Shown here one piece after another: positions 1,639-43,869 of a DNA stretch of 43,869 nt. Every line of letters begins with the position of its first letter. Within the stretch, counting starts at the first letter, position 1. Source of the DNA: a virus. Location: the IMG/VR virus record IMGVR_UViG_3300045988_057526, positions 1-43,869 of that record, one strand, 5' to 3'. The notes under the pieces were generated by a model. The model had not been told where the DNA came from. It saw nothing but the letters and a program-made list of their open reading frames with translations, and made no database searches. The position numbers and the translations under genes are program-made.

Positions 1639-2268
1639 ATGACTTTCTATGAACGGCTGACCGAACTACGCAGAGAAAAGGGATTAACTCAAAAACAGAT
1701 TGTTGATGAACTCGATCTCGGTAAAAATTCCTTTGGGGATTGGAAGAGAGGGATTATCCCTGTCCGTTCCACTCAGCAACTTCTTGCCAAATATTTCGGA
1801 GTATCGGTTGACTACCTTATGGGAAAAACTAATAACCCCATTCCTAATACGGAAACGGTAGGCACCTACATTCCGTATGAAAAACGGGGTTTGCGTCCAG
1901 TCATCGGTTTAGCTTCGGCAGGAACAGGGGTGATTGCAGAAGAAATGATTGTTGGTTGGGAAACAGTTGATGACGAATACGATAACGACACCTGCTTTTG
2001 GCTCGAAGTATCTGGTAACAGCATGGCTCCAAAAATCGACAACGGAGATCGAGTGCTTATTCAGCGGGACGCCGAAATCGAGAGCGGCTGTATTGCCGTG
2101 GTCGTGGTAGACGGTACAGACGGGTTTTTGAAACAAGTCGAGTTCGGTGAGAACTCCACCTCGCTTCACTCGTTCAATCCGTATTATCCCGACATGGAGT
2201 TTGTAGATGCCGACCAGAAACGTTTGCACTTTGTCGGTCGCGTCCGGGAAATGAAGCGGAGGTTCTGA
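1639..2268 (+). CDS. LexA/CI-like repressor: XRE helix-turn-helix plus S24 self-cleaving peptidase domain
   Basis: GGAGG lies 8 nt upstream of ATG 1639. N-terminus LRREKGLTQKQIVDELDLGKNSFGDWKRG. C-terminus GNSMAP (Ser) and FLKQV (Lys). A candidate Ala-Gly cleavage site is in GLASAGTG. Confidence 0.85.
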   Translation: MTFYERLTELRREKGLTQKQIVDELDLGKNSFGDWKRGIIPVRSTQQLLAKYFGVSVDYLMGKTNNPIPNTETVGTYIPYEKRGLRPVIGLASAGTGVIAEEMIVGWETVDDEYDNDTCFWLEVSGNSMAPKIDNGDRVLIQRDAEIESGCIAVVVVDGTDGFLKQVEFGENSTSLHSFNPYYPDMEFVDADQKRLHFVGRVREMKRRF

Positions 2269-2269
2269 T

Positions 2270-3934
2270 ATGCGCCAGAAGTTTAAGATCGACCTCTCTA
2301 TGCTGACCCCGGAGGAACAGCAGCAGTTTCATGATGACCCTACCACCCTGACCAAAGGTGAAGTTGATGTTGCTTTGTACCTTCGGTTCAGTTCGGAACG
2401 GCAGAAGGAACAGTCCATTGAAGGTCAGCTTCGAGACTGTATTGCGTACTGTAAGCGCAAGAGCTTCCGCATTGTCGCCATTTATGTTGACCGTGCTACT
2501 ACTGCTCGGAAAGATGTAGAGAAGCGAGTCCATTTTCAGGAGATGATTTCCGACAGCGCTCATCATCTCTGGAACTTCGTGGTCGTGTGGAAGCTCGACC
2601 GCTTTGCTAGAAATAGAGAAGACAGCGCCGTGTTCAAAATGCGGCTACGGAAGAATGGAGTTCGGGTCAAATCCGCAACCGAAACAATCTCTGATAACCC
2701 CGAAGGTATCATCTTGGAGTCTGTACTTGAAGGTATTGCCGAATACTATTCCGCCGACCTTAGCCAGAAGATTACCCGTGGTCTAAGAGAGTCAGCCATG
2801 AAGGGTCATTCCGTTGGTGGTCATGTCCCCTTGGGGTACAAAATCGAAGATCATAGACTTGTAATAAATCCGGCAACCGCCCATATCGTCCAAGAAGCAT
2901 TTCAACTCTACGCCAACGGCGAGAGTGTGGCTGAGATTTGCCGTATCTTCAACAGCAAGGGCTACCGTACCGCCAAGAACTCGGAGTTTACCCGAAGCAG
3001 TTTTAAATCCATATTTAAGAATGTGCGGTATATCGGGACATACATCTACAAAGACATAGAGAAAGAAAACGCCATTCCAGCAATTATCGACAAAGACCTC
3101 TTTGAAACGGTGCAACGGCGGCTTTCTTTGGCCGCTGACGCGCCTGCAAGGGGTAAAGCTAAGGTAGATTATCTCCTGTCCGGAAAGCTGTTCTGCGGGC
3201 ATTGTGGAGCCGTTATGCACGGGGAAAGCGGTACGAGTAAAACCGGAGCTATCCACAACTACTATACCTGTTATTCCCGGAAGCGGCGAAAGGGCTGTAA
3301 TAAGAAACCATTGAAAAAGGACTTTATTGAACGTGTTGTAGCCCAAGACGCCATGGCGCTGCTCACCGATGATGTAATTGAAGAACTGGCTGATATGGCT
3401 ATGTCACAGGCGGATAGGGACTTGAAAGAGAACACCCGTATCCCGGAATTGTCTGTTAGACTCACCGAGATCGAACAAGGTATTAACAACATTACTAAGG
3501 TCATTGAGAAAGGAATCGCGTCTGACACTCTCTTGAACCGCCTGACCGAGTTGGAGAAAGAAAAGAAAGACCTGACTTCTCAACTTCGGGAAGAAGAAAA
3601 ATACATCTACCGAATTGATAGAGATCAGGTGGTATTCTGGCTGACGAAGTTCCAAGGAGGCGATATAGAGGACGAGGATTGCAGGCGGCGTATCATCGAC
3701 CTTCTGGTAAATTCCGTGACGGTATGGGATGAACCTGACGGATATAAAATCACCACTGCATACAACCTCACTTCCTGCAAAACCAAGACTTTCCGGGTCA
3801 GCAACAACGCTGACTCTCCTTCTGGCGAGGGGTTCGGATTTGGGGAGCTATCGTCCACCATTGGACGCATATCCGAACCCTACATTGTGTGGGGTACGGT
3901 CTTTGTCCAAACCAGAAGACACTCCTTGTCTTAA
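2270..3934 (+). CDS. int: Large serine recombinase (integrase)
   Basis: VALYLRFSSERQ catalytic Ser region, recombinase domain, zinc ribbon (CGHCG...CYSRKRRKGC) and a coiled-coil stretch. 554 aa. ATG lies 1 nt after the repressor stop. Confidence 0.85.
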   Translation: MRQKFKIDLSMLTPEEQQQFHDDPTTLTKGEVDVALYLRFSSERQKEQSIEGQLRDCIAYCKRKSFRIVAIYVDRATTARKDVEKRVHFQEMISDSAHHLWNFVVVWKLDRFARNREDSAVFKMRLRKNGVRVKSATETISDNPEGIILESVLEGIAEYYSADLSQKITRGLRESAMKGHSVGGHVPLGYKIEDHRLVINPATAHIVQEAFQLYANGESVAEICRIFNSKGYRTAKNSEFTRSSFKSIFKNVRYIGTYIYKDIEKENAIPAIIDKDLFETVQRRLSLAADAPARGKAKVDYLLSGKLFCGHCGAVMHGESGTSKTGAIHNYYTCYSRKRRKGCNKKPLKKDFIERVVAQDAMALLTDDVIEELADMAMSQADRDLKENTRIPELSVRLTEIEQGINNITKVIEKGIASDTLLNRLTELEKEKKDLTSQLREEEKYIYRIDRDQVVFWLTKFQGGDIEDEDCRRRIIDLLVNSVTVWDEPDGYKITTAYNLTSCKTKTFRVSNNADSPSGEGFGFGELSSTIGRISEPYIVWGTVFVQTRRHSLS

Positions 3935-3955
3935 AACAGGGGGTGTCTTTTTTGT
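3917..3955 (+). terminator. Rho-independent terminator of the lysogeny operon
   Basis: AGACACTCC...GGGGTGTCT stem (one G-U pair) followed by TTTTTTG. The int stop codon lies in the loop. Confidence 0.7.
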
Positions 3956-3958
3956 TTA

Positions 3959-4065
3959 GGTGATAAAGGTGAGTAATCGAGCGTTTTTCCTATAAACTCT
4001 CTCTTATACGCGCGTACTAAGAAGAAGTTATAGGGATTTTGACCCGATTACTCACCTTTATCACC
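3959..4065. repeat. Nested palindrome A (107 bp). The inner 46 bp is the attP candidate.
   Basis: Perfect 21-bp arms GGTGATAAAGGTGAGTAATCG / CGATTACTCACCTTTATCACC. Inner imperfect dyad at 3989-4034 (16 of 23 per half) is centred on TACGCGCGTA (4007-4016). It lies between convergent terminators next to int. Confidence 0.6.
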
Positions 4066-4080
4066 TTATACACTTAAATG

Positions 4081-4112
4081 TAAAAATCCCCGGAAGCTGA
4101 AACCTCCGGGGA
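4081..4112 (-). terminator. Rho-independent terminator ending the late operon
   Basis: TCCCCGGA / TCCGGGGA 8-bp stem followed on the minus strand by TTTTT. Confidence 0.7.
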
Positions 4113-4128
4113 TGCTGTTATATGAATA

Positions 4129-4392
4129 TCACTTATCCGTCAGTTGCTTGATCGACTGATTAAGTCCCGTTGCCGCCCAGCCGGAAACGATACCGACAGC
4201 CGCAGCGTCCAGCCAGTTATCGGCTGGGTAACTGGGCACACCCATCACCCATGCAATTACACCGAGCGCCAGCCCGATCACGCCGCAGATAATAGGAATC
4301 CACTTGTCTGCCACATTGGTGGCCTTAACTGCCATGCCTACCAGATACGCGATGGCGGTGATCGCCGCCACAGATGCAATACCAAAATCCAT
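4129..4392 (-). CDS. Holin (87 aa, multiple transmembrane segments)
   Basis: MDFGIASVAAITAIAYLVGMAV...IPIICGVIGLALGVIAWVMG...AAAVGIVSGWAATG. It is the last gene of the lysis cassette. GAAAGGGG ribosome-binding site. Confidence 0.65.
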   Translation of the reverse strand: MDFGIASVAAITAIAYLVGMAVKATNVADKWIPIICGVIGLALGVIAWVMGVPSYPADNWLDAAAVGIVSGWAATGLNQSIKQLTDK

Positions 4393-4405
4393 ATGTATAC
4401 CCCTT

Positions 4406-4721
4406 TCAGTTTTCTGTCGGTAGCTGCAAAAACTTGCTGTGAATATCATCCATCACGCCGTTGACTCCCAGCGCATGATACTGTTTCCAGCAATTCTCGA
4501 AATTTTGTCGGGCATAGATCGGGGCGTAACCCCGATCTATGCCATTTGTTGTAATCTGCGATCATCTGCGCCCGCAGCAAAGCCTGTACGCCCAATTTGG
4601 TCGCCGCAGTGTCCGCGCGGTCATGCTTGATCTGCGTCGCCAGATGCCGGATCATGGCCAGCATCGCCGCGATCAGCAGCGACGGCACACCCAGCAGGCA
4701 TAGCCACTGATATGTAGTCAT
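4406..4721 (-). pseudogene. Lysis-cassette membrane protein interrupted by a +1 frameshift at a G4 run (alternatively recoded, or a homopolymer error)
   Basis: Frame 0 runs from 4721 (MTTYQWLCLLGVPSLLIAAMLAMI...ADYNKWHRSG) to a stop at 4446. The +1 frame from 4531 reads GYAPIYARQNFENCWKQYHALGVNGVMDDIHSKFLQLPTEN and stops at 4406, 13 nt before the holin ATG. Confidence 0.55.
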
Positions 4722-5668: not shown

Positions 5669-7555
5669 TTACGCCTTTGGCGATATTAGGCATCCACCGA
5701 TGTACTCGCCGAACACCTGCCGCCCATATTCGTTAAGATGTGTGCCGTCTGCCAAAAATGCGGAAGCGTTTGCGGTGTTTATGCCAAGTGCCTTGTAGCC
5801 GTCGATGCAGGGACAGTTGAACTCATCGGCCACACCTGCAAGCGCCGTGCCGAACTCACGCAGCGTCTTACCGTTGCCGTTCGTGTAGCTCTCTGCGCCG
5901 ACGCTGTCCCACTTGCGATAGATTGGCAAGGAAATAAAGACGCGAATTTTTGGATAGGCAGTCTGAATCTTGCGCAGCGCGTATCGCAGCGCCCCGCACA
6001 ACGTTGATGTATCATCGTCATCGGTAGCGTTGTCGATAGCGACATTGCCGGTGAAGTCGTTCGTACCGTAGTGGATGACCACCGTGTCAACACTGCCAAA
6101 GTCAATTCCTTTCAGCACCGCAAGCTGCTGTGCAAAATAATCTGCGCCGCTGGATGCCTGCGCATCCTGTGTGGTGTAAGTGCCCGTGGCCACAGCATCG
6201 GCCAGTGCCCACATAGAAAACGCAGCGTAGCCGCTCGTTGGGTGCACCGCCATCCGGCAGCCACCAAAGCCCACATTGCAAACCTTTGCACCCGTGAATG
6301 CCGCCGCCCATGCGGGGACGGAGGTTGTGTCTCTCGTCATGCCAAATATGCTGTCGCCAAAGCACACAACCGTCTTGCCCGACAGTAGGGGCGATGCTAT
6401 GTCAAAATCGACATTCGCCTTTTTGACCTTCACGCTCGGTTTGAGCACATTCTGCGTAGTCACGGTGTCGGTTATCTCCTCGTTCACAGTGACTATGGCA
6501 TCAGCCGAGTGGGTCGTGACACGAAGCCACGCAAAGTTGTCCCAAAAGTAATAACCGATGCCCGAGGTGTCCCATGTGACGACATTGCCGCTTACAGTCA
6601 CCGTGCCATACAGCGCGCTGCTTTGGATGGCATTAATGGTCTTGCCGCAATTTGCCGTACCGGCTTTGGCTGCCGTCAGTGCCATGACAAGCGTCGTGTC
6701 GATGTTCACCCGTGATGTGTCCTTGATGCGGATGATATCGCCCTTTTTCACGGGAATATACCCAGATGTCACCACGCCGGTGCCGGACAGTTCTTCGCCC
6801 GCGCTGTTCAGATACACGCCGGATTTGTATCCCGTCCCGTTGTAGACCGCCCCATTGGCATCTGCGGAAACCGGAATTTGATTGGTATATGCCGGCGCAG
6901 TAATGGTTTCCGCTACCACGATTTCCGGAAAGTCTACTTCCTGCGCGCTGCTGCCGTCATAAGTAGTGGTAGCGCCGCCCACTTTAAGCGTCAGCGCCTT
7001 CGGGTTCGGCAGGGTTTCCGGCACAGTGGGGATTTGCACAAGGATTCTCTGTGCCGCAACTTGGAATGCGCCGTACTGCACCAAGTCCGTGGTATGGCCC
7101 GGATTATTAAGATTCTCTGCTGTCACCAGCCCCGTGATGCTGTCGATTACCGCCTTGTTCGCGTGCGTGTGCCGCGCGGTGGTGTTGGCGTTGATCTCCG
7201 CAGTCGGGACTACCGGGATATCACCCGGCGCGGCAGGCTTGTACCCAAGCGCACCTGTGATGCTTGCCGCAGTCACGGTCGCGTCACTGCCGTCCTTGCC
7301 GGGAGCGCCGTCCGCTCCCTTGAGGTCTGCCACCGCGATCAAGTTTTCCCACGTGCTGCCGTCCGTGCTGTACTGGATGTAGCCGTCCGCCACGCGCAGG
7401 AATTTGCCGGCTGGCATATCCACCGGCTCCCATGCGGTCGGCACTCCGAGTGCATCCACGGCTGTGATCTTGGCGATCTGGCCGACCGTCGCTCCAGTGA
7501 TGCTTAGAGACTTTGGCTCATTTTTGTCACTGTAATGTTTCGTCCCAATTCCCAT
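5669..7555 (-). CDS. Tail fibre or receptor-binding protein with a C-terminal SGNH/GDSL esterase domain
   Basis: ATG 7555 follows GGAGGTG. Short collagen-like GADGAPGKDGSD. C-terminal blocks VVCFGDSIFG, GGCRM, GTNDF and DGTHLNEYG are typical of SGNH hydrolases. Confidence 0.7.
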   Translation of the reverse strand: MGIGTKHYSDKNEPKSLSITGATVGQIAKITAVDALGVPTAWEPVDMPAGKFLRVADGYIQYSTDGSTWENLIAVADLKGADGAPGKDGSDATVTAASITGALGYKPAAPGDIPVVPTAEINANTTARHTHANKAVIDSITGLVTAENLNNPGHTTDLVQYGAFQVAAQRILVQIPTVPETLPNPKALTLKVGGATTTYDGSSAQEVDFPEIVVAETITAPAYTNQIPVSADANGAVYNGTGYKSGVYLNSAGEELSGTGVVTSGYIPVKKGDIIRIKDTSRVNIDTTLVMALTAAKAGTANCGKTINAIQSSALYGTVTVSGNVVTWDTSGIGYYFWDNFAWLRVTTHSADAIVTVNEEITDTVTTQNVLKPSVKVKKANVDFDIASPLLSGKTVVCFGDSIFGMTRDTTSVPAWAAAFTGAKVCNVGFGGCRMAVHPTSGYAAFSMWALADAVATGTYTTQDAQASSGADYFAQQLAVLKGIDFGSVDTVVIHYGTNDFTGNVAIDNATDDDDTSTLCGALRYALRKIQTAYPKIRVFISLPIYRKWDSVGAESYTNGNGKTLREFGTALAGVADEFNCPCIDGYKALGINTANASAFLADGTHLNEYGRQVFGEYIGGCLISPKA

Positions 7556-7556
7556 A

Positions 7557-7847
7557 TCACACCTCCATCGTGGTGATTGTCCCGCTATCATCGACTGTGA
7601 TCTTGAACTTTTTGGTGCTATTGGGTGTAGTCGATTGCAAAATTGTACTAGCATCGATTTTTGCGCTGAGTTCTGTAATTGCGGATTCCAGCTCAGGAGC
7701 AGAAACAACATCAAATTCTACGCCCATGGATTCATTGGGTGTAACCATGACTACATAATGCGTAAAGTTACGGCTGTACGCAGTAGCCCCAAACATATAC
7801 GTATCTCTTGTAGCAATGACCATTGGGAGCATACGCCCACAATCCAT
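7557..7847 (-). CDS. Hypothetical tail-module protein (96 aa as drawn; start uncertain)
   Basis: Open frame from 7856. LPMVIATRDTYMFGATAYSRNFTHYVVMVTPNE looks protein-like. There is no clear ribosome-binding site, and it overlaps the upstream ORF by 97 nt. Confidence 0.4.
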   Translation of the reverse strand: MDCGRMLPMVIATRDTYMFGATAYSRNFTHYVVMVTPNESMGVEFDVVSAPELESAITELSAKIDASTILQSTTPNSTKKFKITVDDSGTITTMEV

Positions 7848-8437
7848 AGCATCACGTCATACGAAAGATTTTCTGACTCACTGCTATAAATACCATAATG
7901 CTCTTCACCCGCTTCTGCAACTCGAAGTCTGCAAGTAAAAGTCGGCGCATCAATAAGATACTCAGGACGATTCTTAATGTAGTCCTTTGCTTTTGAGTTG
8001 TTTTGTGCCCAGTCCGCACCACCAGACGCAGCCGCTTCGTTGATCGCGGCTACCAGCGTGTCCTTTGCCTCCGTCGTCAGGTCGGCAAGGTCGCCGATTT
8101 CGGCGCGCAGACGATCGAAGCCAGCGTGCTCGGTCGGGGTGTAGACGTAGTCCGACGGCTTAGGACGTGCAAATACGGGAAAATAGACCAGCACCTTGGT
8201 GTAACCGCCGTTAGTATCGGAAACCCAAGCGTATACAATTAGCTTTCCGGGCACTTGCAGTAGTTCATCGGGGATCGCTGCTTTTCCGTTTTTAACCTCG
8301 ACAGTATACGGAATGTTGATTACTTTCTCGGTGCTTGTGAAATGTGCTTGTGAAACTGTATCTTCACCGAACTCGATGATTCTACCGGTATCCCACTGGA
8401 ACAGTTCTCCACGTCCATCTGCGAGTTCAAGTGTCAT
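7751..8437 (-). CDS. Tail fibre or baseplate-associated protein (3' end uncertain)
   Basis: AAGGAGG ribosome-binding site at 8437. MTLELADGRGELFQWDTGRII... The last 33 or so residues (MLWIVGVCSQWSLLQEIRICLGLL...) look non-native. Confidence 0.45.
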   Translation of the reverse strand: MTLELADGRGELFQWDTGRIIEFGEDTVSQAHFTSTEKVINIPYTVEVKNGKAAIPDELLQVPGKLIVYAWVSDTNGGYTKVLVYFPVFARPKPSDYVYTPTEHAGFDRLRAEIGDLADLTTEAKDTLVAAINEAAASGGADWAQNNSKAKDYIKNRPEYLIDAPTFTCRLRVAEAGEEHYGIYSSESENLSYDVMLWIVGVCSQWSLLQEIRICLGLLRTAVTLRIM

Positions 8438-22103: not shown

Positions 22104-22132
22104 ATTGTATCAAACTCTCCAATGCTTGTCAA
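22104..22132 (-). promoter_or_regulatory. Sigma-70-like promoter upstream of the portal gene: TTGACA, 17-nt spacer, TACAAT
   Basis: Minus strand reads TTGACA (22132-22127), agcattggagagtttga (17 nt), TACAAT (22109-22104), in the terL-portal intergenic gap. Confidence 0.6.
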
Positions 22133-23918: not shown

Positions 23919-24560
23919 TTATCTGGATTTTGCCATCAGCTCGGCAAACTCCCGGCTGTTTTTCTTAACCGTTCTTTCAATCAATCTCCCATTGCTATAA
24001 AGCACTCGGAAAAGAACAGTAGCAGAGAAAATGTTTCTGGATTGGCTCATGGTCTTCTTTGTACCACTCAAACCACCCACCACGGCACCGGCGCTACCAA
24101 ACATCAAACCGCCAACCGCCGCTCTACCGAGAGATACATTTTTGCCTCGGCTGATTGATTCCTGCCCCATGCCATTATCGCAAGGCTCAGCGGCGACCGG
24201 AACAGGCTTACCAACTTGCAAGGGGAAGGCGGGATATTCCTTTCGGAAATCCTCAATGAGATCGCTCCATTCTTTGTCCGGCAAATCCCAAATGTTTTCC
24301 GGCTTATTTCCGTTCATCGCCACTAAAGCCCCCGTGAGCGTTGCGTTATCCGAGCTGACCATGATTTCAGTTCCGTCTTCCAGTTCCCTCAGATAAAACA
24401 CAAATGGGAGAGAACCTTTCCCCATGCGGAACCTTGTTCGTACCTCAATGCTCTCATTCGGGCAGTCCTGTTTGATGGCGCAAGACCGTTCACAGACTGT
24501 CTTGATAAGCTGATAGCTTTCGCTGGTAGTCATGGGTAATGAAAACTGATAGTACGCCAT
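23919..24560 (-). CDS. Hypothetical protein with a glycine-zipper segment (213 aa)
   Basis: GRAAVGGLMFGSAGAVVGGLSG (aa 145-166) has a small residue every fourth position. Its ATG directly abuts the recombinase TAA stop. Confidence 0.6.
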   Translation of the reverse strand: MAYYQFSLPMTTSESYQLIKTVCERSCAIKQDCPNESIEVRTRFRMGKGSLPFVFYLRELEDGTEIMVSSDNATLTGALVAMNGNKPENIWDLPDKEWSDLIEDFRKEYPAFPLQVGKPVPVAAEPCDNGMGQESISRGKNVSLGRAAVGGLMFGSAGAVVGGLSGTKKTMSQSRNIFSATVLFRVLYSNGRLIERTVKKNSREFAELMAKSR

Positions 24561-25331
24561 TTACACTTCTACCCCTTTCAAAATCGGCTCGTGAACGCCC
24601 TTGACCCAATTCATATTCCCGTATTTATACATACCCTCGTACAGAGGACGGTTGCCGAGAATACTTTTGATGGTAGACACCTGAAACCGCTTGCCGGAAC
24701 GGGTCTGGTATCCCGCCTTTTCCAGCAGCTCCGTGATACCCAGCATGGAAACGCCGTCCTCGTGCTTCTCGAAGATGAACTTCACGATAGGAGCTTCCTG
24801 CTCGTCAATGGTGAGAACACCATCAACTACCTTATAGCCGTAAGGACGGCGACCACCGCTGTACCCGCCGCAGGAAGCCTTGATGGAACGACCCTTGCCG
24901 GTTCGCAAAGCGATGTTCTTTCTCTCCTGCTCTGCCACGAATTGAAGCAGCGCACGGTAGATGTTGGCAAACTCGCTGCCCTCTGTGAAGCTCTCCTGCG
25001 TACTCAGAAGTTTGATGTTCTTCTTTTCCAGCACATACAGGTAGTAGAAGTACAGCTTGGTATCACGAGCCACACGGTCATTCTTGAATACGATCACCGC
25101 TTCATAGGGAGGATTGCTTACATCGTCCCCATAAAGGATTTCGTTCAGACCGGGACGATCATCTTTCGCACCGCTGATTTCATCGACCTTCCAGTCTACG
25201 ATGTTGTAGCCGTTGTCATTGGCGTAGAGAAGAATGGCCTGCTTCTGAACTTCGATGCCGTATTTGTCATCATCGGCCTGTCGCTCGGTGGAGACTCGGA
25301 TATAGCCGATTGCGTTTTTGAATGTCATCAT
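24561..25331 (-). CDS. Short serine recombinase (about 256 aa): catalytic and recombinase domains, no zinc ribbon or coiled coil
   Basis: AIGYIRVSTERQ catalytic Ser. GGRRPYGYKVVDGVLTIDEQEAPIVKFIF...STIKSILGNRPLYEG recombinase domain. Ends shortly after VHEPIL. Confidence 0.8.
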   Translation of the reverse strand: MMTFKNAIGYIRVSTERQADDDKYGIEVQKQAILLYANDNGYNIVDWKVDEISGAKDDRPGLNEILYGDDVSNPPYEAVIVFKNDRVARDTKLYFYYLYVLEKKNIKLLSTQESFTEGSEFANIYRALLQFVAEQERKNIALRTGKGRSIKASCGGYSGGRRPYGYKVVDGVLTIDEQEAPIVKFIFEKHEDGVSMLGITELLEKAGYQTRSGKRFQVSTIKSILGNRPLYEGMYKYGNMNWVKGVHEPILKGVEV

Positions 25332-25350
25332 AAGATCACCTCTTGCATAT

Positions 25351-25379
25351 AAGATAGCATAGGTAAATGTAATTGTCAA
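25351..25379 (-). promoter_or_regulatory. Promoter P2: TTGACA, 17-nt spacer, TATCTT, upstream of the recombinase
   Basis: Minus strand reads TTGACA (25379-25374), attacatttacctatgc (17 nt), TATCTT (25356-25351), then AGAGGTGAT ribosome-binding site and ATG. Confidence 0.6.
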
Positions 25380-26883: not shown

Positions 26884-27035
26884 ATAGCAATCAGCCTTTC
26901 ATAATATATATTCCGTTCCGTTTTCCCATTTTCGGCCTTGATACGCTGAAAGCCTATTTCACCGGCCTACATGGGGAAATGTACGGGGATTTAATTTTCA
27001 AGGTACATTTGCATTTACTGCCTTTCGGTAAATAC

Positions 27036-27064
27036 AAGATAGCATATTTACATTTACTTGTCAA
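27036..27064 (-). promoter_or_regulatory. Promoter P1: TTGACA, 17-nt spacer, TATCTT, upstream of the cassette
   Basis: Minus strand reads TTGACA (27064-27059), agtaaatgtaaatatgc (17 nt), TATCTT (27041-27036). Same architecture as P2. Confidence 0.6.
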
Positions 27065-27138
27065 GCGTAAATATAAAAGAAAATCAAGATTTTTCGCAAA
27101 TGTGGCCGCTATACATTATAAAGGGCAAAAAAACGCGG

Positions 27139-27214
27139 CCCCGATCAAGCCGGGACACCGACAACGCCCACGCAGCCCCAATCAAGCCGGAACCCGCCGC
27201 CGATCAGCCGGGGA
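27139..27214. repeat. Three 16-17-bp repeats of the form CC(G/A)ATCA(A)GCCGG(G/A)A
   Basis: Copies at 27139-27155, 27176-27192 and 27199-27214. Confidence 0.6.
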
Positions 27215-27259
27215 AAGGAAAAGCCGCCGACCCCGTGAAGAGATCGGCAGCTCTGTCAA

Positions 27260-27403
27260 AGTCGCAGACCCTCGCCGTAAAGTCGCAAAGTCGTTCGGGC
27301 GAAAGTCGTAAAAGTCGTGGGAAAATCGCAAAGTCGCTCGGCATAGTCGTAAGCTATAGTCGCAAAAGTCGTGAAAGTCGCTCAGTCCTCTGAGTCATAG
27401 TCG
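27260..27403. repeat. Array of 11 AGTCG pentamers (CGACT on the minus strand) plus one AATCG variant, irregular 8-23 bp spacing
   Basis: AGTCG begins at 27260, 27281, 27289, 27304, 27313, 27332, 27345, 27358, 27367, 27376 and 27399. Eight copies are AAAGTCG. One further AAAGTCG sits at 27969-27975, just upstream of terS. Confidence 0.8.
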
Positions 27404-27951
27404 CCGGACGCACCAACCACATCTTCGAGGTACTTCTTTTCCAAGTCCTCAGCGGGAACCTGATCTCCGAGCTGCTGGTTGGGTGTCAACACGACCTCCT
27501 GCTTGTCCGCATAGCCCATGTTGTTCTTCATCAAGAAGATACCGGCGACCGGATTGATCTTCCCGTTCTGCATATAATTTTCCATCTGAGCGTTCAAAAA
27601 TTGATACGCCTTTTTTAGCGAGTCCCTGCTTTCAGAGGGGATATAGGCACTATCAATACCATTTACCCACTTCCACAGAGTTCTTCTATCAATACCGAAC
27701 GCCAATGCCATACCTGCAACAGAGGGTTTCATGTCATCTTCGGCACAAATCCGAAAGTAATTCCCAATACGCTCAGTCACAGCTTCCGGCTTGGTCATAT
27801 CAACAGCAGGCCAGCCCCACATTCTCAAATCGTGTTCGAGAAACTTCCGATTATCTCCCGGTTGAAGCTGTGCCGTACTATCAGGCCGTTTATTACCGCC
27901 AGTACCTTTTGGTCTGCCACGACCACGCTTTTCCGCAATTTCATCTGCCAT
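27382..27951 (-). CDS. terS: Terminase small subunit
   Basis: N-terminus GRGRPKGTGGNKRP, central helix-turn-helix-like GMALAFGIDRRTLWKWV, C-terminus AGIFLMKNNMGYADKQE. GAAAGGAG ribosome-binding site. Confidence 0.75.
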   Translation of the reverse strand: MADEIAEKRGRGRPKGTGGNKRPDSTAQLQPGDNRKFLEHDLRMWGWPAVDMTKPEAVTERIGNYFRICAEDDMKPSVAGMALAFGIDRRTLWKWVNGIDSAYIPSESRDSLKKAYQFLNAQMENYMQNGKINPVAGIFLMKNNMGYADKQEVVLTPNQQLGDQVPAEDLEKKYLEDVVGASGDYDSED

Positions 27952-27979
27952 AGTCGTTTTCTCCTTTCAAAGTCGCCAA

Positions 27980-28086
27980 GGTGATAAAGGTGAGTAATCG
28001 GGTGCATTTCCCTATAACTATTTCTATATACGCGCGTATAAGAGAGAGTTATAGGCATTTATGCCCGATTACTCACCTAACTCACC
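27980..28086. repeat. Nested palindrome B (107 bp), a paralogue of element A
   Basis: Left arm is identical to A. Right arm matches 18 of 21. The inner dyad at 28011-28055 has the same TACGCGCGTA centre. Its right half is the reverse complement of the A left half (22 of 22 with one 1-nt indel). Confidence 0.8.
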
Positions 28087-28146
28087 TAAAATACGAAAAA
28101 CAATTTTTCAAAACACGCCAATTTGAAAAAAGTCTTTGCAAAAACA

Positions 28147-28174
28147 CTCACCTTTATCACCTTTATCACCTAAC
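28147..28174 (-). repeat. Iterons GGTGATAAA GGTGATAAA GGTGAG overlapping the stop of the upstream gene
   Basis: Minus strand reads TAG TTAGGTGATAAAGGTGATAAAGGTGAG. The 18-mer TCACCTTTATCACCTAAC recurs exactly at 28515-28532. Confidence 0.75.
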
Positions 28175-28503
28175 TACCAATTAGCGTTGATAACCACCTT
28201 GTTCCCATGAGCGAGTGCTTCCGTCACAATCCACACCACACCGTCCCAGTTGTAGACCTTTTTCTTCACGGCGTAGTCTACAAGCTGCTTTGCCTGCTCG
28301 CTGTCAAGAACCATGTCCTTACCATACCAGTCGTTCTCCTTGGTTCGCTTCTCGTAAGGAACATAGTAGCCGAGCTTTTCCAGAAAGTCGTACCAAAGTC
28401 GACCACTGCTGTCAATGCTGGCTATATCCGTATGCCCAACAGGGACACCGCAGTTGGGACAGCGATACTCCTTACGCTCTGAGATCGTAATATCAAGACC
28501 CAT
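28174..28503 (-). CDS. Hypothetical protein (109 aa) immediately upstream of the late region
   Basis: MGLDITISERKEYRCPNCGVPVGH... Its ribosome-binding site is embedded in the repeated 15-mer. Confidence 0.6.
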   Translation of the reverse strand: MGLDITISERKEYRCPNCGVPVGHTDIASIDSSGRLWYDFLEKLGYYVPYEKRTKENDWYGKDMVLDSEQAKQLVDYAVKKKVYNWDGVVWIVTEALAHGNKVVINANW

Positions 28504-28527
28504 ACTATTTCACCTCACCTTTATCAC

Positions 28528-28731
28528 CTAACGGCGGCGTCCGATGTATTCGTCAATACTAATCCGCAATGCATCCGCAAGCAGAGCGATTGTATCAATT
28601 CGCCCATTTTTCGTCGTGCCACATTCCAGCGCGCAGATCGTGGATATGGGCACACCTGAAATCCGCGACAGTTGTGCCGCTGACAACTTAGCCCTATTAC
28701 GTGCTTTACGCATACTCTCGCCCTTTGTCAT
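28528..28731 (-). CDS. XRE-family helix-turn-helix protein (67 aa)
   Basis: RKARNRAKLSAAQLSRISGVPISTICALECGTTKNGRIDTIALLADAL. Confidence 0.7.
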   Translation of the reverse strand: MTKGESMRKARNRAKLSAAQLSRISGVPISTICALECGTTKNGRIDTIALLADALRISIDEYIGRRR

Positions 28732-29033
28732 TCTGCTTTATCCTTTCGCTCGCCGAGATAGCAGAAAGCGTGCGGCGGCATTTCGCAATGCAGCGCCTTG
28801 CACCACCCCCAGCTTTCGCATTCATTCTCTCCGAGTTCCCAAAACCGGCAGTCTTCGCGCCTCATGTATGTCCGGTAATGCTTGCAATCCCTACACCGCA
28901 CCACCGGCACAACGTCGGCGGCTGGCATATCCGCAAGCATCCGCTTCGCGTCTGCCATTGTTGCGCTTGGCTTTGTGACCTCCAATGCGGTTAGTTTGGC
29001 AATCGCCGTCGCCCGCTGGATGTATTCAGCCAT
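28728..29033 (-). CDS. Cys-rich protein (101 aa)
   Basis: GGGAGG ribosome-binding site upstream of ATG 29033. C-terminus VRCRDCKHYRTYMRREDCRFWELGENECESWGWCKALHCEMPPHAFC. Confidence 0.55.
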   Translation of the reverse strand: MAEYIQRATAIAKLTALEVTKPSATMADAKRMLADMPAADVVPVVRCRDCKHYRTYMRREDCRFWELGENECESWGWCKALHCEMPPHAFCYLGERKDKAE

Positions 29034-29160
29034 TGTCAGCACCTCCCTTTTCACAAGCTGGTTGATAGCAGTTAAACAACACATCGTCAGTGTCACACAC
29101 GCAGCACGGTTTACCGTCGCAAGCGCTTGGTGGGTAAAATACACAGGTATCACAACCCAT
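29026..29160 (-). CDS. Cys-rich micro-protein (44 aa, 9 Cys), below the track cutoff
   Basis: MGCDTCVFYPPSACDGKPCCVCDTDDVLFNCYQPACEKGGADNG. TAATG and ATGGCTGA overlaps with its neighbours. Confidence 0.4.
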   Translation of the reverse strand: MGCDTCVFYPPSACDGKPCCVCDTDDVLFNCYQPACEKGGADNG

Positions 29161-29480
29161 TACTCCACCTCCAGCATCGCCTGCTGCATAAACGACAACT
29201 GCTGGCGCAGGTCGTCGATTATCTTATCTTTACGCACGAGCATCTCTTCGCAAATTGCGCAGTTCGCAATCAGTTCCAAAGAATTGGATTCAAATTTAAG
29301 GTGCCGGAAGTGTTCTTCGCGCGCATATTTCAATAGCATCTGCACCGCATACCGAGCAGCCGGTGAAAAATCAGTACAAGAGTGCGGTCGATCCAAAAGC
29401 TCCTGTACGTTTTTGATTTCTTCCGCGTCGTGCCCCAAGGTGAATTCTTGTGTGTAGTTTCCCCATTTCTTGTTACCCAT
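29160..29480 (-). CDS. Hypothetical protein (106 aa)
   Basis: GAAAGGAAGGAAAGG lies upstream of ATG 29480. Confidence 0.5.
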   Translation of the reverse strand: MGNKKWGNYTQEFTLGHDAEEIKNVQELLDRPHSCTDFSPAARYAVQMLLKYAREEHFRHLKFESNSLELIANCAICEEMLVRKDKIIDDLRQQLSFMQQAMLEVE

Positions 29481-29658
29481 GGTGCCTTTCCTTCCTTTCA
29501 AAGTTGTGGAGGGAGATCATCTTTTCACGGGTGAGCTTGTCAACCACTCGACCGATCTCCGAGTAGCCGCAGACCGCCGCCAGCCGTTCAAGGTTGCCCT
29601 TGGTCTGTGCCGTGACTACGATGGAAATACGGCGGAGGTTCTTTTTCTCAGTTTTCAT
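29473..29658 (-). CDS. Ribbon-helix-helix (CopG/Arc-like) protein (61 aa)
   Basis: MKTEKKNLRRISIVVTAQTKGNLERLAAVCGYSEIGRVVDKL. AAGGAGG ribosome-binding site. Confidence 0.55.
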   Translation of the reverse strand: MKTEKKNLRRISIVVTAQTKGNLERLAAVCGYSEIGRVVDKLTREKMISLHNFERKERHHG

Positions 29659-29827
29659 CACTTTCCTCCTTGTTGCCGTGAATGGAAGCAGAGATGAACG
29701 ACTGCAACAGCACAAAGGCTTCTTCTTTGGTCGCACCAGCATTGAGTAAAGCCCTGTAAAAATTCAGAGACATTTCAGCTAAAGCACCAACGGCGTTCAG
29801 CAACTCTCTCACAGCGTCATTATTCAT
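29648..29827 (-). CDS. Hypothetical helical protein (59 aa), below the track cutoff
   Basis: MNNDAVRELLNAVGALAEMSLNFYRALLNAGATKEEAFVLLQSFISASIHGNKEESDEN. Overlaps both neighbours. Confidence 0.45.
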   Translation of the reverse strand: MNNDAVRELLNAVGALAEMSLNFYRALLNAGATKEEAFVLLQSFISASIHGNKEESDEN

Positions 29828-30179
29828 CGTTGTTCACCTCTGTAAATGCTCTTGCGAGATCGTCAATCATCTGGTGCATGACTCTATCGCCAACATCATC
29901 TTCGTTCTGACACCAGAAGGAGAATTTCAGATGTAGCAGTTCATGTACCAGCGTCTTTTCAAAGTCGAACGGCACAATGCGGTCGCCGTAGCAGGCAGGG
30001 TCGATGATCTCAATACGAGCGGTCTTAATTGCTTCTGACCACTCGGTACAGCCTGCGGCATCACTCATCGTCATTTCTTCGGGGTGTAGGTGAGTCAACA
30101 GCTTTATCCGCCACTCCTGCAAGCAGAGTTTTCGCTTCCACTTTTCCAGCAGGGCGAGTTCTTCATTGGTTGCTGTCAT
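29820..30179 (-). CDS. Putative zinc metallopeptidase (HExxH)
   Basis: TLVHELLHLKF contains HELLH. GGAGGG ribosome-binding site before ATG 30179. Confidence 0.5.
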   Translation of the reverse strand: MTATNEELALLEKWKRKLCLQEWRIKLLTHLHPEEMTMSDAAGCTEWSEAIKTARIEIIDPACYGDRIVPFDFEKTLVHELLHLKFSFWCQNEDDVGDRVMHQMIDDLARAFTEVNNDE

Positions 30180-30357
30180 TGTTAGCCCTCCTGTTCCAAA
30201 ATTCGATTGCCTTTCCCTTACCGTCGCCTTGCTCATAATAGTCAGGGAAAGCCTTCCCAAGCGTTTTGCATTTTGGGCATTTCACGACGCTCATTTGATA
30301 GACGTATATCAGCCTCGCCTTTCCGCCGCAAAAGGGGCAGGGTTTCAATTCAGGCAT
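30163..30357 (-). CDS. Lar-family-like restriction alleviation protein (64 aa)
   Basis: LKPCPFCGGKARL...KCPKCKTLG zinc-ribbon pattern and size match my memory of the Lar family. Confidence 0.5.
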   Translation of the reverse strand: MPELKPCPFCGGKARLIYVYQMSVVKCPKCKTLGKAFPDYYEQGDGKGKAIEFWNRRANNDSNQ

Positions 30358-42677: not shown

Positions 42678-43869
42678 GGAACTTGCACCCCGCTTTCCGG
42701 TAGGTGGTACACCGCTTCTTGTAACTTCTCACGAGGTACTGGATACCATCGTCCACATAATCATAGGCGATAGGTTCTCCCTTTCCCTCGAAGGTACGAG
42801 CGATACGACCAATGCTCTGAGTTATCACAGCGTAGTCTTTCTGCGGCGTAGTCAGGTACAAGCGGTCGAGCCGGGGAATGTCAAGTCCTTCCTTTGCCAG
42901 TGAATAGGTGGCAAACAGATACCGCTTGCGTCCCTGCCGCATTTCCTCAATAGCCTGTTCTCGGAGAGCCTTGGCCTTCTTCGTGGTCATCTTTCCATCA
43001 ATCATGACCGCCTGTTTTCTCAGGTCGGACGGAAGATGGTTCATCAAATACTCCAAATGACCAAGCCTGTCTGATAGAATTAGGTTGAAATGCTGATCGT
43101 TCTGTATAAGATCGCCAACAATCTGACCGTTACGGCGAAAATCTTCGACAAGATAATTCACCAGTTTTGCATAAATGATTGTGCCGTCCGTATCAAGAAA
43201 TTCACGGTCTAAACCGATGTGAGTGGCACGGGGTAGAACGCTGACGGTCATGATCTTGTCTTTCACCGCTTCCTCCGGCACCCGATAGGCAATCCCGCCC
43301 AGCAAGGCGTAGGTGGCGGCAATCATACCGTCTGCCCTGTGAACCGTGGCGGACAGACCGTACTTGTGTCGAGCTGCCAGAGCGTTCAGCACCTTTGAGA
43401 ACTGCGTCATGGCGGTCGGAGTTCCGGCTACACGGTGACACTCGTCCACGATGATACAATCCCAAACATCACGGTATTGACTCAGATCGAGGTTGCACAT
43501 GGTCTGTACCGTTGCGAAGGTGATTGCCTTGCCGATTTGAACCCTACCTTCGGTGATTGTGCCAGTCAAAGAAGGACTCATATACTGCTCCGCTCGGCTT
43601 TTGCTCTGTACGAGCAAATCCCGTGTATGGGTCAGCCAGAGTGTCCTTCGACCTGTATCTGCCGCAACAGCAATTCCGATCTGCGTCTTACCGCATCCCG
43701 CAGGGGCTTGAAGAATACCGTAGTAGGCAGTTATCAGGGCTTCCTTGGCTTCCACTTGGTAGTCATAGAGCGGAATGGTGCAACCGAAGTCCACCTCGGT
43801 CGGCGTTGGAAGATTGACCTTCATGTGACAATCGTCCATCGCCAGCACATCGTTCAAGCACCCGTAGGG
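42667..43869 (-). CDS. SF2 (DEAD/DEAH-type) helicase, main body; continues at 80-265 across the circular junction (462 aa in total)
   Basis: LQAPAGCGKT (Walker A), IIVDECHRV (motif II), SAT and a C-terminal RecA-like domain. The TTG at 43857 is only an artefact of the window edge. Confidence 0.8.
   Translation of the reverse strand, partial: PYGCLNDVLAMDDCHMKVNLPTPTEVDFGCTIPLYDYQVEAKEALITAYYGILQAPAGCGKTQIGIAVAADTGRRTLWLTHTRDLLVQSKSRAEQYMSPSLTGTITEGRVQIGKAITFATVQTMCNLDLSQYRDVWDCIIVDECHRVAGTPTAMTQFSKVLNALAARHKYGLSATVHRADGMIAATYALLGGIAYRVPEEAVKDKIMTVSVLPRATHIGLDREFLDTDGTIIYAKLVNYLVEDFRRNGQIVGDLIQNDQHFNLILSDRLGHLEYLMNHLPSDLRKQAVMIDGKMTTKKAKALREQAIEEMRQGRKRYLFATYSLAKEGLDIPRLDRLYLTTPQKDYAVITQSIGRIARTFEGKGEPIAYDYVDDGIQYLVRSYKKRCTTYRKAGCKFLEP
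43791..43869. repeat. Second copy of the 79-bp closure overlap
   Basis: Identical to bases 1-79. Confidence 0.9.

Follow-up and report, generated by a model that had tools for sequence, protein, structure and literature searches.

Layout of the Region Upstream of terS

The window analyzed in this work is the whole viral stretch of 43,869 nt (IMG/VR record IMGVR_UViG_3300045988_057526), a circular assembly with a 79-bp overlap. The late module starts with terS, and the DNA upstream of this gene carries the following features.

27382..27951, minus strand: terS (GP3_package family), first gene of the late module that the block would serve
27940..27979, minus strand: leader containing the RBS GAAAGGAGAAAACGACT and running into terS for its first 12 nt; the conserved block has its right edge here
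27980..28086, no strand assigned: palindrome B, 107 bp, imperfect, directly upstream of terS
28087..28143, minus strand: AT-rich spacer of 57 bp between the upstream boxes and B, 98-99.7% conserved
28144..28173, minus strand: three direct 9-bp boxes (GGTGATAAA GGTGATAAA GGTGAGTGT) with TTA before them
28174..28503, minus strand: 109-aa gene, an optional cassette found in 48 of 53 loci
28514..28532, minus strand: isolated copy of the motif, between the helix-turn-helix and 109-aa genes

Palindrome B opens with two 9-bp boxes, TAATCGGG, an A-rich segment and CCTATAAC, passes through the center TATACGCGCGTATA, and continues with GTTATAGG, another A-rich segment, CCCGATTA and two inverted boxes. 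The center, between CCTATAAC and GTTATAGG, is alternating purine-pyrimidine sequence, and a candidate -10-like CTATAA lies inside the palindrome. The 107-mer was found in 55 identical copies, and in all paired copies (91/91) the distance covered by the arms GGTGAGTAATCG and CGATTACTCACC is exactly 89 bp. The end of B is 28 nt from the start codon of terS, and the leader in between carries one GCGACTTT and one ACGACTAT box in addition to the RBS. At the left edge of the conserved block, the segment 28144..28173 abuts the stop of whichever gene lies upstream, and the three boxes proper (28144-28170) begin at that stop in four different contexts. The spacer can form a weak hairpin only (-10.5 kcal/mol, z = -1.6). 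An AT-rich stretch had been noted here by the first-pass annotation, and the 80-bp window 28087-28166 does have 28% GC, the fourth lowest value in the genome. The same annotation saw no sigma-70 consensus promoter upstream of terS; our consensus scan of 27952-28600 agrees, as it detected no sigma-70-like promoter. A terminator is located 3' of terS at 27136-27156.

The Repeated 15-mer and Its 9-bp Unit

The 15-mer GGTGATAAAGGTGAG has five exact copies, at 3959-3973 (plus strand), 4051-4065 (minus), 27980-27994 (plus), 28147-28161 (minus) and 28514-28528 (minus), and one further tandem copy at 28156-28170 (minus) that overlaps its neighbor and has one mismatch. In the genome-wide count these 6 matches compare with 0.01 expected, and 6 or more were reached in 0 of 100 shuffles. 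The previously reported recurrence of at least five copies is thus borne out and far above chance, but the pair near 28161 and 28170, described as exact tandem copies, is exact at 28147-28161 only. Degenerate copies, said to sit in the right arm of B, were located as TTAGGTGAGTTAGGTGAG at 28071-28088 (minus strand). The repeat unit is a 9-bp box, GGTGA(T/G)WWA, and the 15-mer is two such boxes in tandem. The earlier description did not include this unit, or the fact that the copies at 3959 and 4065 are the arms of a second palindrome. About 11 boxes in total are grouped in three clusters, and within the genome GGTGA boxes are confined to 3959-4065, 27980-28170 and 28514-28528. A literature search for the motif found nothing.

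Positions 28157-28174 and 28515-28532 carry the identical 18-mer TCACCTTTATCACCTAAC. It overlaps the stop codons of both the 109-aa gene and the helix-turn-helix gene, as had been claimed, but in different registers: the helix-turn-helix gene stops at the TAG within GTTAGG of the 18-mer, and the 109-aa gene has its TAG two bases further upstream and shares only the G with the 18-mer. The overlap with stop codons follows from the sharp edge of the conserved block. The view that the motif is simply a preferred ribosome-binding-site context does not hold, because the only copy preceding a start codon is 28514-28528, which is a recombination junction.

Conservation of the Block and Co-variation of the Boxes

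The lineage scan covered at least 120 viral stretches. The block at 27940-28175 (236 bp) is 97-100% identical in about 90 related gut-phage contigs or loci (host Dysosmobacter), and the identity of the coding DNA beside it goes down to 60-80% within 10-20 bp. At least four different sets of upstream genes and four downstream arrangements occur with the block intact, and the conservation of the spacer (99%) is as uniform as that of the boxes. Anatomy, conservation and box co-evolution are direct observations. The two alternative outer boxes, GATAAA and GAGTTA, combine freely and the pairing of the arms is not preserved in most variants; they behave therefore as boxes and not as a stem. Six distant homologues (L131, L132, L134, L138, L141, and L148) keep the layout of tandem boxes, a CTATAA...TATAGG core and inverted tandem boxes, followed by the RBS and the first late gene, and in these every box reads GGTGCA, including the unpaired upstream copies. 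Since the boxes have changed in all copies of the distant relatives, recognition by a protein is indicated. The spacing from box to putative -10 element is 16 to 21 bp and varies between families.

The isolated copy at 28514..28532 is a junction duplicate at the place where the 109-aa cassette sits; the helix-turn-helix gene takes its stop codon from this copy, and the 109-aa gene part of its RBS. In L071 and seven other loci, 28175-28514 is missing and the helix-turn-helix stop is joined straight to the block. Homology breakpoints pile up at the block edges, at 28171-28177 (many loci) and at 27940-27958. The edge insertions comprise the 109-aa cassette, small coiled-coil ORFs and an HNH gene, with duplicated joints of 18-20 nt; in L075, L086, and L105, duplicated copies of the terS-leader RBS flank small inserted genes. 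The analysis thereby accounts for the gain and loss of small accessory genes at the edges of the block.

A Second Palindrome at the Far End of the Late Genes

The other box-bearing palindrome lies next to the integrase gene, with these features around it.

3830..3880, no strand assigned: probable attP site for the large serine integrase, an imperfect palindrome of 51 bp, GGGTTCGGATTTG(N25)CATATCCGAACCC
3914..3951, plus strand: intrinsic terminator of the integrase gene (-23.8 kcal/mol, z = -5.0), ending 7 bp before A
3959..4065, no strand assigned: palindrome A, 107 bp, paralogous to B, with the exact 15-mer as each outer arm
4086..4113, minus strand: intrinsic terminator of the late/lysis operon (-23.3 kcal/mol, z = -5.8), about 20 bp from A on its other side

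Palindromes A and B lie 24 kb apart and bracket the virion-gene block; both are present in at least 15 contigs or genomes. Their ungapped identity is 85/107 (79%) in the inverted and 74/107 in the direct alignment. Each is near-palindromic in itself, and A and B do not differ in the polarity of their A-rich internal segments, although the inverted alignment gives the higher overall identity. Copies of A occur solely at the distal end of the late module. In the window, A sits after the lysis genes between two convergent terminators, with no downstream gene to regulate, and L121 has the same arrangement of A and terminators. The terminators on both sides place A in a transcriptionally insulated gap, which indicates a role at the DNA level. 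In type-ii relatives, A is found directly before the RBS of a putative holin gene, 26 nt from the gene, the same distance as from B to terS, and lysis cassettes occur on either side of A depending on the phage.

Several other identities of the palindromes were rejected. A is not attP: it stays intact about 100 bp inside the prophage end by tRNA-Arg, tRNA-Ala, and tmRNA (L003, L097, L112, L121, L125), and no half-elements of the kind left by an attL/attR split were seen among more than 120 matches. In lysogens the tRNA/tmRNA 3' end abuts window position ~3858. A CI operator, or a set of immunity-repressor sites, is excluded because the switch region uses a different palindrome, TCCCGTNNACGGGA; this region (1351-1638) carries TCCCGTGGACGGGA and TCCCGTTGACGGGA, not GGTGA boxes. 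Inversion of a late segment, by a Hin/Gin-type system or between A and B, is excluded by the absence of chimeric flanks in 123 copies (0/123), and only about one third of the loci have the serine recombinase at 24561-25379. A MITE-like mobile palindrome does not agree with the finding that all 90 B copies with readable flanks have the same flanks (90/90). The center TTATACGCGCGTATA resembles that of N15 telO; a protelomerase site was rejected, as the genome codes for no such enzyme. The ORF of 554 aa encodes a large serine recombinase, and the one of 615 aa hits a PHROGs family of DNA polymerases (phrog_1252).

Candidate Reader Proteins

Pfam and PHROGs scans gave no homologue of RinA, ArpU, LtrC, or Alt, and among the ORFs at 28174-30260 they gave no member of the RinA, ArpU, or DUF1492 families. 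Three encoded proteins were considered as readers of the boxes and set aside. The 109-aa protein is acidic (pI 5.6) and optional, has a predicted DapD N-domain-like fold and is not recognizably DNA-binding, which does not suit an activator. The conserved 61-aa basic protein (29473-29658) has a CopG-like sequence pattern, an hhalign probability of only 16% and an AlphaFold model of two helices; near-identical proteins occur in phages without boxes, and it was rejected as a ribbon-helix-helix reader. The C-terminus of the D5 helicase, a candidate iteron reader, does not co-vary with the boxes.

Proposed Late Control and Comparison With Known Systems

We concluded that the 15-mer most likely marks protein-binding control DNA for the late genes, and not a replication origin or an integration site. 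The reading we favor, with a probability of about 0.45, is a late control region that depends on an activator or regulator and has the layout of the RinA/ArpU/LtrC promoters of terS; protein binding, the promoter and the direction of regulation are what we infer here. A pair of GGTGA(T/G)WWA boxes would be the recognition site of a putative sequence-specific DNA-binding protein, and together the boxes would make up a control region of the late module with its packaging, virion, and lysis genes. A late regulator on the boxes may activate or gate transcription into terS from a promoter without a -35 element, analogous to RinA/ArpU/LtrC or Alt on direct repeats upstream of terS. Because a terminator follows terS, a single late promoter would need read-through. 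Palindrome A would mark where the late module ends distally. In the relatives that have a putative holin gene behind A, it may drive or gate a lysis cassette; in the window, its position after the lysis genes and between convergent terminators leaves it a function at the DNA level only, such as that of a bound boundary or a roadblock, or it may be a relic promoter. The distribution of the element, which tracks the late module and not the replication module, favors late control. The first-pass annotation had offered three options for this layout. A late promoter is the best supported of them, since direct repeats at a stop codon, a spacer and terS without a sigma-70 promoter make up the published Ltr layout; an origin is disfavored, and a pac/cos site is weakened by the second copy, by L105 and by separate iterons.

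The Alt-dependent Plate promoter of the lactococcal phage TP901-1 is a related known system. Ltr (RinA, ArpU, LtrC)-dependent late promoters of terS are found in phages of Gram-positive bacteria, and like them the present region has three short direct repeats just distal to the last early gene and upstream of the terS that heads the late operon, a weak or absent sigma-70 signal, and a portable block whose downstream DNA may differ (Quiles-Puchalt et al., 2013; PMC3753634). Unlike in the Ltr promoters, the boxes are 9 bp long instead of 7 and recur as inverted pairs in a 107-bp palindrome, and the late module has a second palindrome at its far end; the genome encodes neither an Ltr nor an Alt homologue, and the repeats stay constant next to a varying upstream gene. 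Several observations speak against late control: the scans gave no reader homologue, and neither the 109-aa nor the 61-aa protein suits that role; the gene upstream of the identical boxes may be HTH_3, HTH_30, the 109-aa gene or others, unlike in Ltr systems; the distance between box and putative -10 element differs from family to family; the spacer is conserved more than a simple operator array requires; A lacks a downstream gene in the window; and the terminator behind terS calls for read-through.

Stoperators of cluster A mycobacteriophages (L5 gp71) are also short, asymmetric intergenic motifs that overlap stop codons and are oriented with transcription, and by this likeness a roadblock role for A is possible (PMC9283540; PMC6550527). 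They number 20-30 sites genome-wide, in contrast to about 11 boxes in three clusters here, and the switch region of the window uses another palindrome. The mobile regulatory cassettes of T4-type phages called PeSL, reportedly described by Arbiol et al. in 2010, and the boundary/linker sequences of lambdoid phages resemble the block in having conserved regulatory repeats that edge optional genes and in forming joints for modular shuffling. PeSL cassettes, each a promoter plus stem-loop, come in dozens, whereas the genomes studied here have one or two large elements in fixed positions.

Alternative Explanations

The main rival to late control, which we consider unlikely, is that the B block is a pac/cos recognition region in which TerS sits on boxes flanking a two-fold symmetric cleavage center, with A non-functional or accessory. 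The models are SPP1 pacL/pacC/pacR and lambda cosB/cosN, where box repeats and AT-rich, possibly bent DNA surround a symmetric center by terS; packaging regions of this type are strongly conserved among phages of the same packaging specificity. B fits in lying immediately upstream of terS with repeats around a symmetric center, its block combines direct and inverted repeats with AT-rich DNA and that center, uniform conservation is expected of a cos-like region, and the block travels with the late module. The box type also follows the TerS family: GGTGAG with the window-type, GGTGCA with the L131-type (41% identical), and none with the L126-type. Against a packaging site, at least 15 genomes have another near-complete copy at a distance of 24 kb, A-type copies precede putative holin genes in relatives, and the block of L105 is 99% identical beside a TerS with a replaced N-terminal DNA-binding half. 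A denser, family-specific iteron array immediately 3' of terS (12 copies of RCGACTTT here, four of TTTTGACCGC in L131/L141) is a separate pac candidate. Two copies, boxes unchanged next to a TerS with a swapped N-terminal domain, and a separate iteron array flanking terS all set the region apart from SPP1 pac and lambda cos. It is rather unlikely that A and B form a matched pair of module boundaries, with one protein of phage or host origin that recognizes the 9-bp boxes at both ends and bridges or insulates the 24-kb virion block, with the late block silenced in the lysogen and switched on as a unit, and with promoter, packaging and recombination-joint functions combined in one 236-bp cassette.

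Action at the RNA level appears quite improbable. The palindromes would then be mRNA hairpins of about 107 nt, serving as RNase III processing or stabilizer sites (T7/SP82-like) or in put-like antitermination past the terminator after terS, whose presence is in keeping with the latter. Both fold strongly (-52 to -55 kcal/mol), a z of -5.8 was obtained for the 239-nt leader, the A-rich internal loops have the same polarity to late transcription in A and B, relatives have several G.U pairs that appear on one strand only, and the whole block is uniformly conserved. The variants point the other way: 38 of them, very similar to one another, show single transitions only and no compensatory changes, common ones put A.C mismatches into the sense strand of B, the outer boxes are mismatched in most, and unpaired upstream boxes co-evolve with paired ones. 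The better-folding strand is not the same in A and B, little transcription should reach A between its two convergent terminators, and no Rfam family matched at the gathering threshold, with only generic hairpins (miRNA precursors) far below it. We give a small probability to a recombination linker at module boundaries that has little function of its own, is homogenized by frequent homologous exchange, and acts as a joint for the early, late and lysis modules and the cassettes. Breakpoints are concentrated exactly at the block edges, where small genes are inserted with duplicated joints, L117 has an A/B hybrid, and the side of A on which lysis cassettes are found differs between phages. Yet a linker leaves unexplained the fixed internal architecture, which persists with changed boxes in distant relatives, and the constant position ~27 nt before the first gene of the module, and chimeric A/B flanks were found in 0 of 123 copies. 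A replication origin has a very small chance of being correct. It would consist of two iteron sets around an AT-rich unwinding element, SaPI/P4-like and bound by the D5-type primase-helicase, with A as a second cis site like P4 crr or SPP1 oriR. The iterons do flank AT-rich DNA (the fourth most AT-rich 80-bp window in the genome), the element occurs twice, and a D5-like helicase is encoded, the best solved relative of which is a 797-aa 'DNA primase' chain (7ola). However, L126 and L129, which have this replication module (D5 68% identical, same gene order), are free of boxes over a locus of 19-20 kb in which the late operon begins, whereas L131, with a D5 only 49% identical, retains the element beside terS. 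The block is also 2.2 kb from the helicase gene, with variable genes between. The element thus tracks the late module and not the replication module, which disfavors an origin.

Implications

Temperate phages of this lineage are very common in metagenomes of the human gut, and the clusters of the 109-aa protein hold thousands of member sequences. A non-coding block of 236 bp that is ~99% identical, against 80% for the neighboring genes, is a strong functional signal. If A and B are a matched pair, they would represent a previously undescribed control of a whole late module in abundant phages of gut Oscillospiraceae. If the block is a packaging site, it would predict the start of host-DNA transduction. 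If, as late control would have it, the block is a late-gene switch, it would define the binding site of the regulator, serve as a precise marker for this phage group, and provide a candidate inducible promoter for the Dysosmobacter/Oscillospiraceae host group, for which there are almost no genetic tools.

Motif structure and genome organization

The 15-mer GGTGATAAAGGTGAG was found as exact copies at 3959(+), 4051-4065(-), 27980(+), 28147-28161(-) and 28514-28528(-), with a tandem overlapping copy carrying one mismatch at 28156-28170(-); the genome-wide count is 6 matches vs. 0.01 expected. All coordinates reported for the motif in the first-pass annotation were verified, and the 18-mer common to 28157-28174 and 28515-28532, the AT-rich stretch, and the lack of a sigma-70 consensus upstream of terS (consensus scan) were as it had described them. 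The 15-mer consists of two 9-bp boxes, GGTGA(T/G)WWA, in tandem. The motif pairs 3959/4065 and 27980/28086 form the outer arms of two imperfect palindromes of 107 bp that are homologous to each other, A and B, respectively. The first half of each palindrome contains, in order, two boxes, TAATCGGG, an A-rich 8-nt segment and CCTATAAC; the centre is alternating purine-pyrimidine (TATACGCGCGTATA); and the second half contains GTTATAGG, an A-rich segment, CCCGATTA and two inverted boxes. Without gaps, A and B match at 85/107 positions when aligned inverted and at 74/107 when aligned directly. Being nearly palindromic, the elements have an ambiguous relative orientation; the A-rich internal segments have equal polarity relative to late transcription in both. 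Upstream of B lie a 57-bp AT-rich spacer and three further direct boxes (28144-28170), and 28 nt separate the last box of B from the terS start codon.

The window ends share an exact 79-bp repeat (1-79 and 43791-43869), and the window is therefore a circularly assembled complete genome of ~43,790 bp. It is a complete temperate siphophage genome (~43.8 kb) with the following features:

1639-2268, plus strand, CI/LexA-like repressor
2270-3934, plus strand, large serine integrase
3914-3951, plus strand, intrinsic terminator on one side of A
3959-4065, palindrome A
4086-4113, minus strand, intrinsic terminator on the other side of A
4129-4449, minus strand, holin
27382-27951, minus strand, terS, followed by accessory genes
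27980-28086, palindrome B
29473-29658, minus strand, 61-aa basic protein (pI 10.2, strong RBS)

The minus-strand early replication genes (helicase, DNA polymerase-like protein (phrog_1252), ERF, ThyX, primase, D5-type helicase) are followed by small regulators, also on the minus strand. After terS and the accessory genes come TerL, an SPP1-type portal, head and tail genes and then an amidase and the holin, all on the minus strand. The late module of ~24 kb is bracketed entirely by A and B.

A 272-aa serine recombinase (Resolvase domain and partial Recombinase domain) is encoded between terS and terL, with an unrelated 213-aa ORF directly after its stop codon (23919-25379, -, for the two together); a small resolvase directly precedes terL in the related contig L131, too. 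Two 33-nt direct repeats, 82% identical (25347-25379 and 27032-27064), bracket 142-aa and 123-aa ORFs, and each contains a sigma-70-like promoter (TTGACA, 17 nt, TATCTT). A near-consensus sigma-70-like promoter (22104-22132, -; TTGACA, 17 nt, TACAAT; upstream TG, 11/12 matches) is located between terL and the portal gene, within the expected late operon.

Conservation of the terS-proximal block

The 21-mer GGTGATAAAGGTGAGTAATCG matches at least 120 stretches of IMG/VR human-gut viral contigs and five bacterial contigs, Dysosmobacter segnis BX15 among them. Among the matches listed, the inner-arm span is exactly 89 bp in 91/91 paired copies, the 107-mer is identical in 55 copies, and the block 27940-28175, comprising the upstream boxes, the spacer, B, the ribosome-binding site and 12 nt at the start of terS, is 97-100% identical over ~90 loci. 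Outside the block identity falls to 60-80% within 10-20 bp on both sides. The block is unchanged with varied upstream genes (109-aa plus HTH_30, 109-aa plus HTH_3, HTH_3 alone, or a 65-aa ORF) and varied downstream sequence (two terS alleles, one or two inserted coiled-coil ORFs, or an HNH endonuclease and then a terS with replaced N-terminal half).

The left edge of the block is GTTAGGTGATAAAGG, and the upstream gene, whichever it is, ends within or directly against it, which accounts for the overlap of the motif with stop codons. Among the matches listed, 28175-28514 is wholly absent from eight loci, in which the helix-turn-helix stop codon is joined directly to the block and the 18-mer is single; the 109-aa gene is therefore an optional cassette. 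The motif copy at 28514-28528 is the duplicated joint of this cassette and also supplies part of the 109-aa gene's SD-like RBS. Between B and terS, inserted genes are likewise bracketed by duplicated RBS copies, GAAAGGAGAAAACGACTATG. In the related locus L105, a NUMOD4/HNH_3 homing endonuclease gene (7426-7941) lies right after the conserved four codons that normally open terS (ATGGCAGATGAA), and the terS with replaced N-terminal half follows it.

Evidence for a probable DNA-level role

A sits between two convergent intrinsic terminators, as in the related contig L121; little transcription is therefore expected at A, which points to a role at the DNA level. The outer-box alleles GATAAA and GAGTTA are freely combined, leaving three mismatches in most variants, single stem substitutions are uncompensated, and the better-folding strand is not the same in A and B. 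Distant relatives provide the strongest argument. L131, L132 and L141 form one set and L134, L138 and L148 another; in both, a B-like layout is found directly upstream of the first late gene (tandem boxes, CTATAA...TATAGG core, inverted tandem boxes), and CTATAAnnnTCTCTTATA is common to L134 and B. All boxes in these six relatives, unpaired upstream copies included, carry GGTGCA in place of GGTGAG. Such concerted change of boxes that are not base-paired is the outcome that would be expected from co-evolution with a protein. Given the insulation of A, the uncompensated stems and the concerted boxes, a structured RNA is improbable.

Dense TGCACCC/GGTGCA box arrays also occur in unrelated metagenome contigs (L136 ~1-250, L139 ~220-470, L135 1-100), and in L136 ~100 bp of AT-rich sequence separate three direct boxes from two inverted ones; the GGTGCA box type is thus used in other iteron-like regions.

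Other identities and sites

The element was rejected as attP: in lysogens a tRNA/tmRNA end abuts ~3858, and the integrase terminator, intact A and lysis genes come after. The 3' CCA of tRNA-Arg(acg), tRNA-Arg(ccg), tRNA-Ala(cgc) or tmRNA abuts the homologue of ~3858 at lysogen ends, and no half-elements were found among the matches listed. The loci concerned are L003 12-88, L097 125-201, L112 482-557, L125 5609-5684 and L121 435-781. What fits a serine-integrase attP is a 51-bp imperfect palindrome (3830-3880); this probable attP is located at the 3' end of the integrase ORF and has a left arm resembling a tRNA T-arm. One prophage end abutting four different genes suggests a large serine integrase lineage that targets the 3' ends of several tRNA-like genes.

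A CI operator was rejected, as the switch region has TCCCGTNNACGGGA palindromes instead. The divergent region that separates the CI-like repressor from the leftward early genes contains two 14-bp palindromes, TCCCGTGGACGGGA (1560-1573) and TCCCGTTGACGGGA (1610-1623), which probably serve as immunity operators; nearby, at ~1400-1428, is a strong promoter-like site, TTGCAA(N17)TACAAT. Also rejected were a known RNA family (no match above the gathering threshold in an Rfam search), an invertible segment (chimeric flanks in 0/123 copies among the matches listed), a dispersed mobile element (the positions are fixed) and, despite an N15-like palindrome centre, a protelomerase site (no protelomerase among the window's encoded proteins).

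TerS residues 8-16 form an AT-hook-like motif, KRGRGRPKG (~27904-27930, -), which some terS alleles have (window, L086, L075) and the commonest (L001) lacks. In relatives with an A-type palindrome ahead of the lysis cassette (L124 5167-6973, also L030, L052, L069, L088, L094), the genes just upstream encode a reverse transcriptase (RVT_1, 382-388 aa) and a 222-aa protein that ends with CBM_5_12 repeats; they may represent a diversity-generating retroelement with a tail protein as its target.

Late control, packaging or replication

We concluded that a protein-bound control region for the late module is the most likely reading, with a probability of about 0.45. Among the functions proposed in the first-pass annotation, the late promoter leads, cosB/pac is its main rival and the origin is disfavoured. 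In published Ltr-dependent promoters, the binding sites of RinA, ArpU or LtrC are three direct repeats that lie upstream of terS, directly beyond the preceding gene (PMC3753634). The layout of the window element is like that of Ltr-type terS promoters; it differs from them in its palindromic second tier, its partner element at the distal boundary and its lack of a known activator. The D. segnis-type relatives have a putative holin gene, encoding a membrane protein without Pfam match, whose start codon is 26 nt downstream of an A-type palindrome, a distance similar to that from B to terS. Together, the A-type palindrome before the putative holin and B before terS fit a control element for late transcription units.

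The replication module of the related loci L126 and L129 is as in the window (D5 helicase 68% identical, same gene order, nearly identical 61-aa protein), and no boxes are present in their 19-20 kb loci, although the late operon begins within them. The L131 helicase is far more diverged, at 49% identity, yet the architecture next to terS is retained there. It follows that the element is inherited together with the packaging and late module, which makes a replication origin very improbable. A pac/cos signal would account for a box type that tracks the TerS family, and a cos-like region would be this uniformly conserved; we nevertheless consider it unlikely, since there are two copies per genome, the L105 block is unchanged beside a TerS with replaced N-terminal half, and directly 3' of terS there is another iteron array, which is denser and specific to the family. 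This RCGACTTT/RCGACTAT array has 12 same-strand copies (27258-27404, -) beginning at the terS stop codon, with two more boxes in the terS leader (27969-27976, 27953-27960), and is kept in L001, L075, L086, L105 and L122. In its place L131 and L141 have TTTTGACCGC four times directly after terS; GCGACTAY occurs three times before terS in L126. Such family-specific arrays are candidate TerS/pac sites. That the element is a mere recombination joint is a good deal less probable than pac/cos.

Candidate readers of the boxes

Four candidates for the protein that recognises the boxes were examined: the 109-aa protein, the 67-aa helix-turn-helix protein, the 61-aa basic protein and the D5 helicase. 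The 109-aa gene is just upstream of the boxes in 48/53 loci; its product was rejected as acidic (pI 5.6), optional and, in its confident structural model (pLDDT 89), only weakly matched, to the DapD N-terminal domain. The 67-aa protein is found in just 7/53 loci. The 61-aa protein, of a narrow family of 261 proteins (phrog_22389), is present in 50/53 related loci and 93% conserved, even where all neighbours vary; its CopG-like sequence pattern reached an hhalign probability of just 16%, its predicted model is a two-helix hairpin, and it also occurs in phages without boxes, for which reasons it was rejected. The D5 helicase does not co-vary with the boxes. No RinA, ArpU, LtrC or Alt family member is detectable with Pfam and PHROGs. 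Possible readers are TerS, a host factor or a small protein that was not recognised as such. The element is noteworthy mainly for how extremely conserved the block is among gut phages of a group that is abundant yet experimentally untouched.
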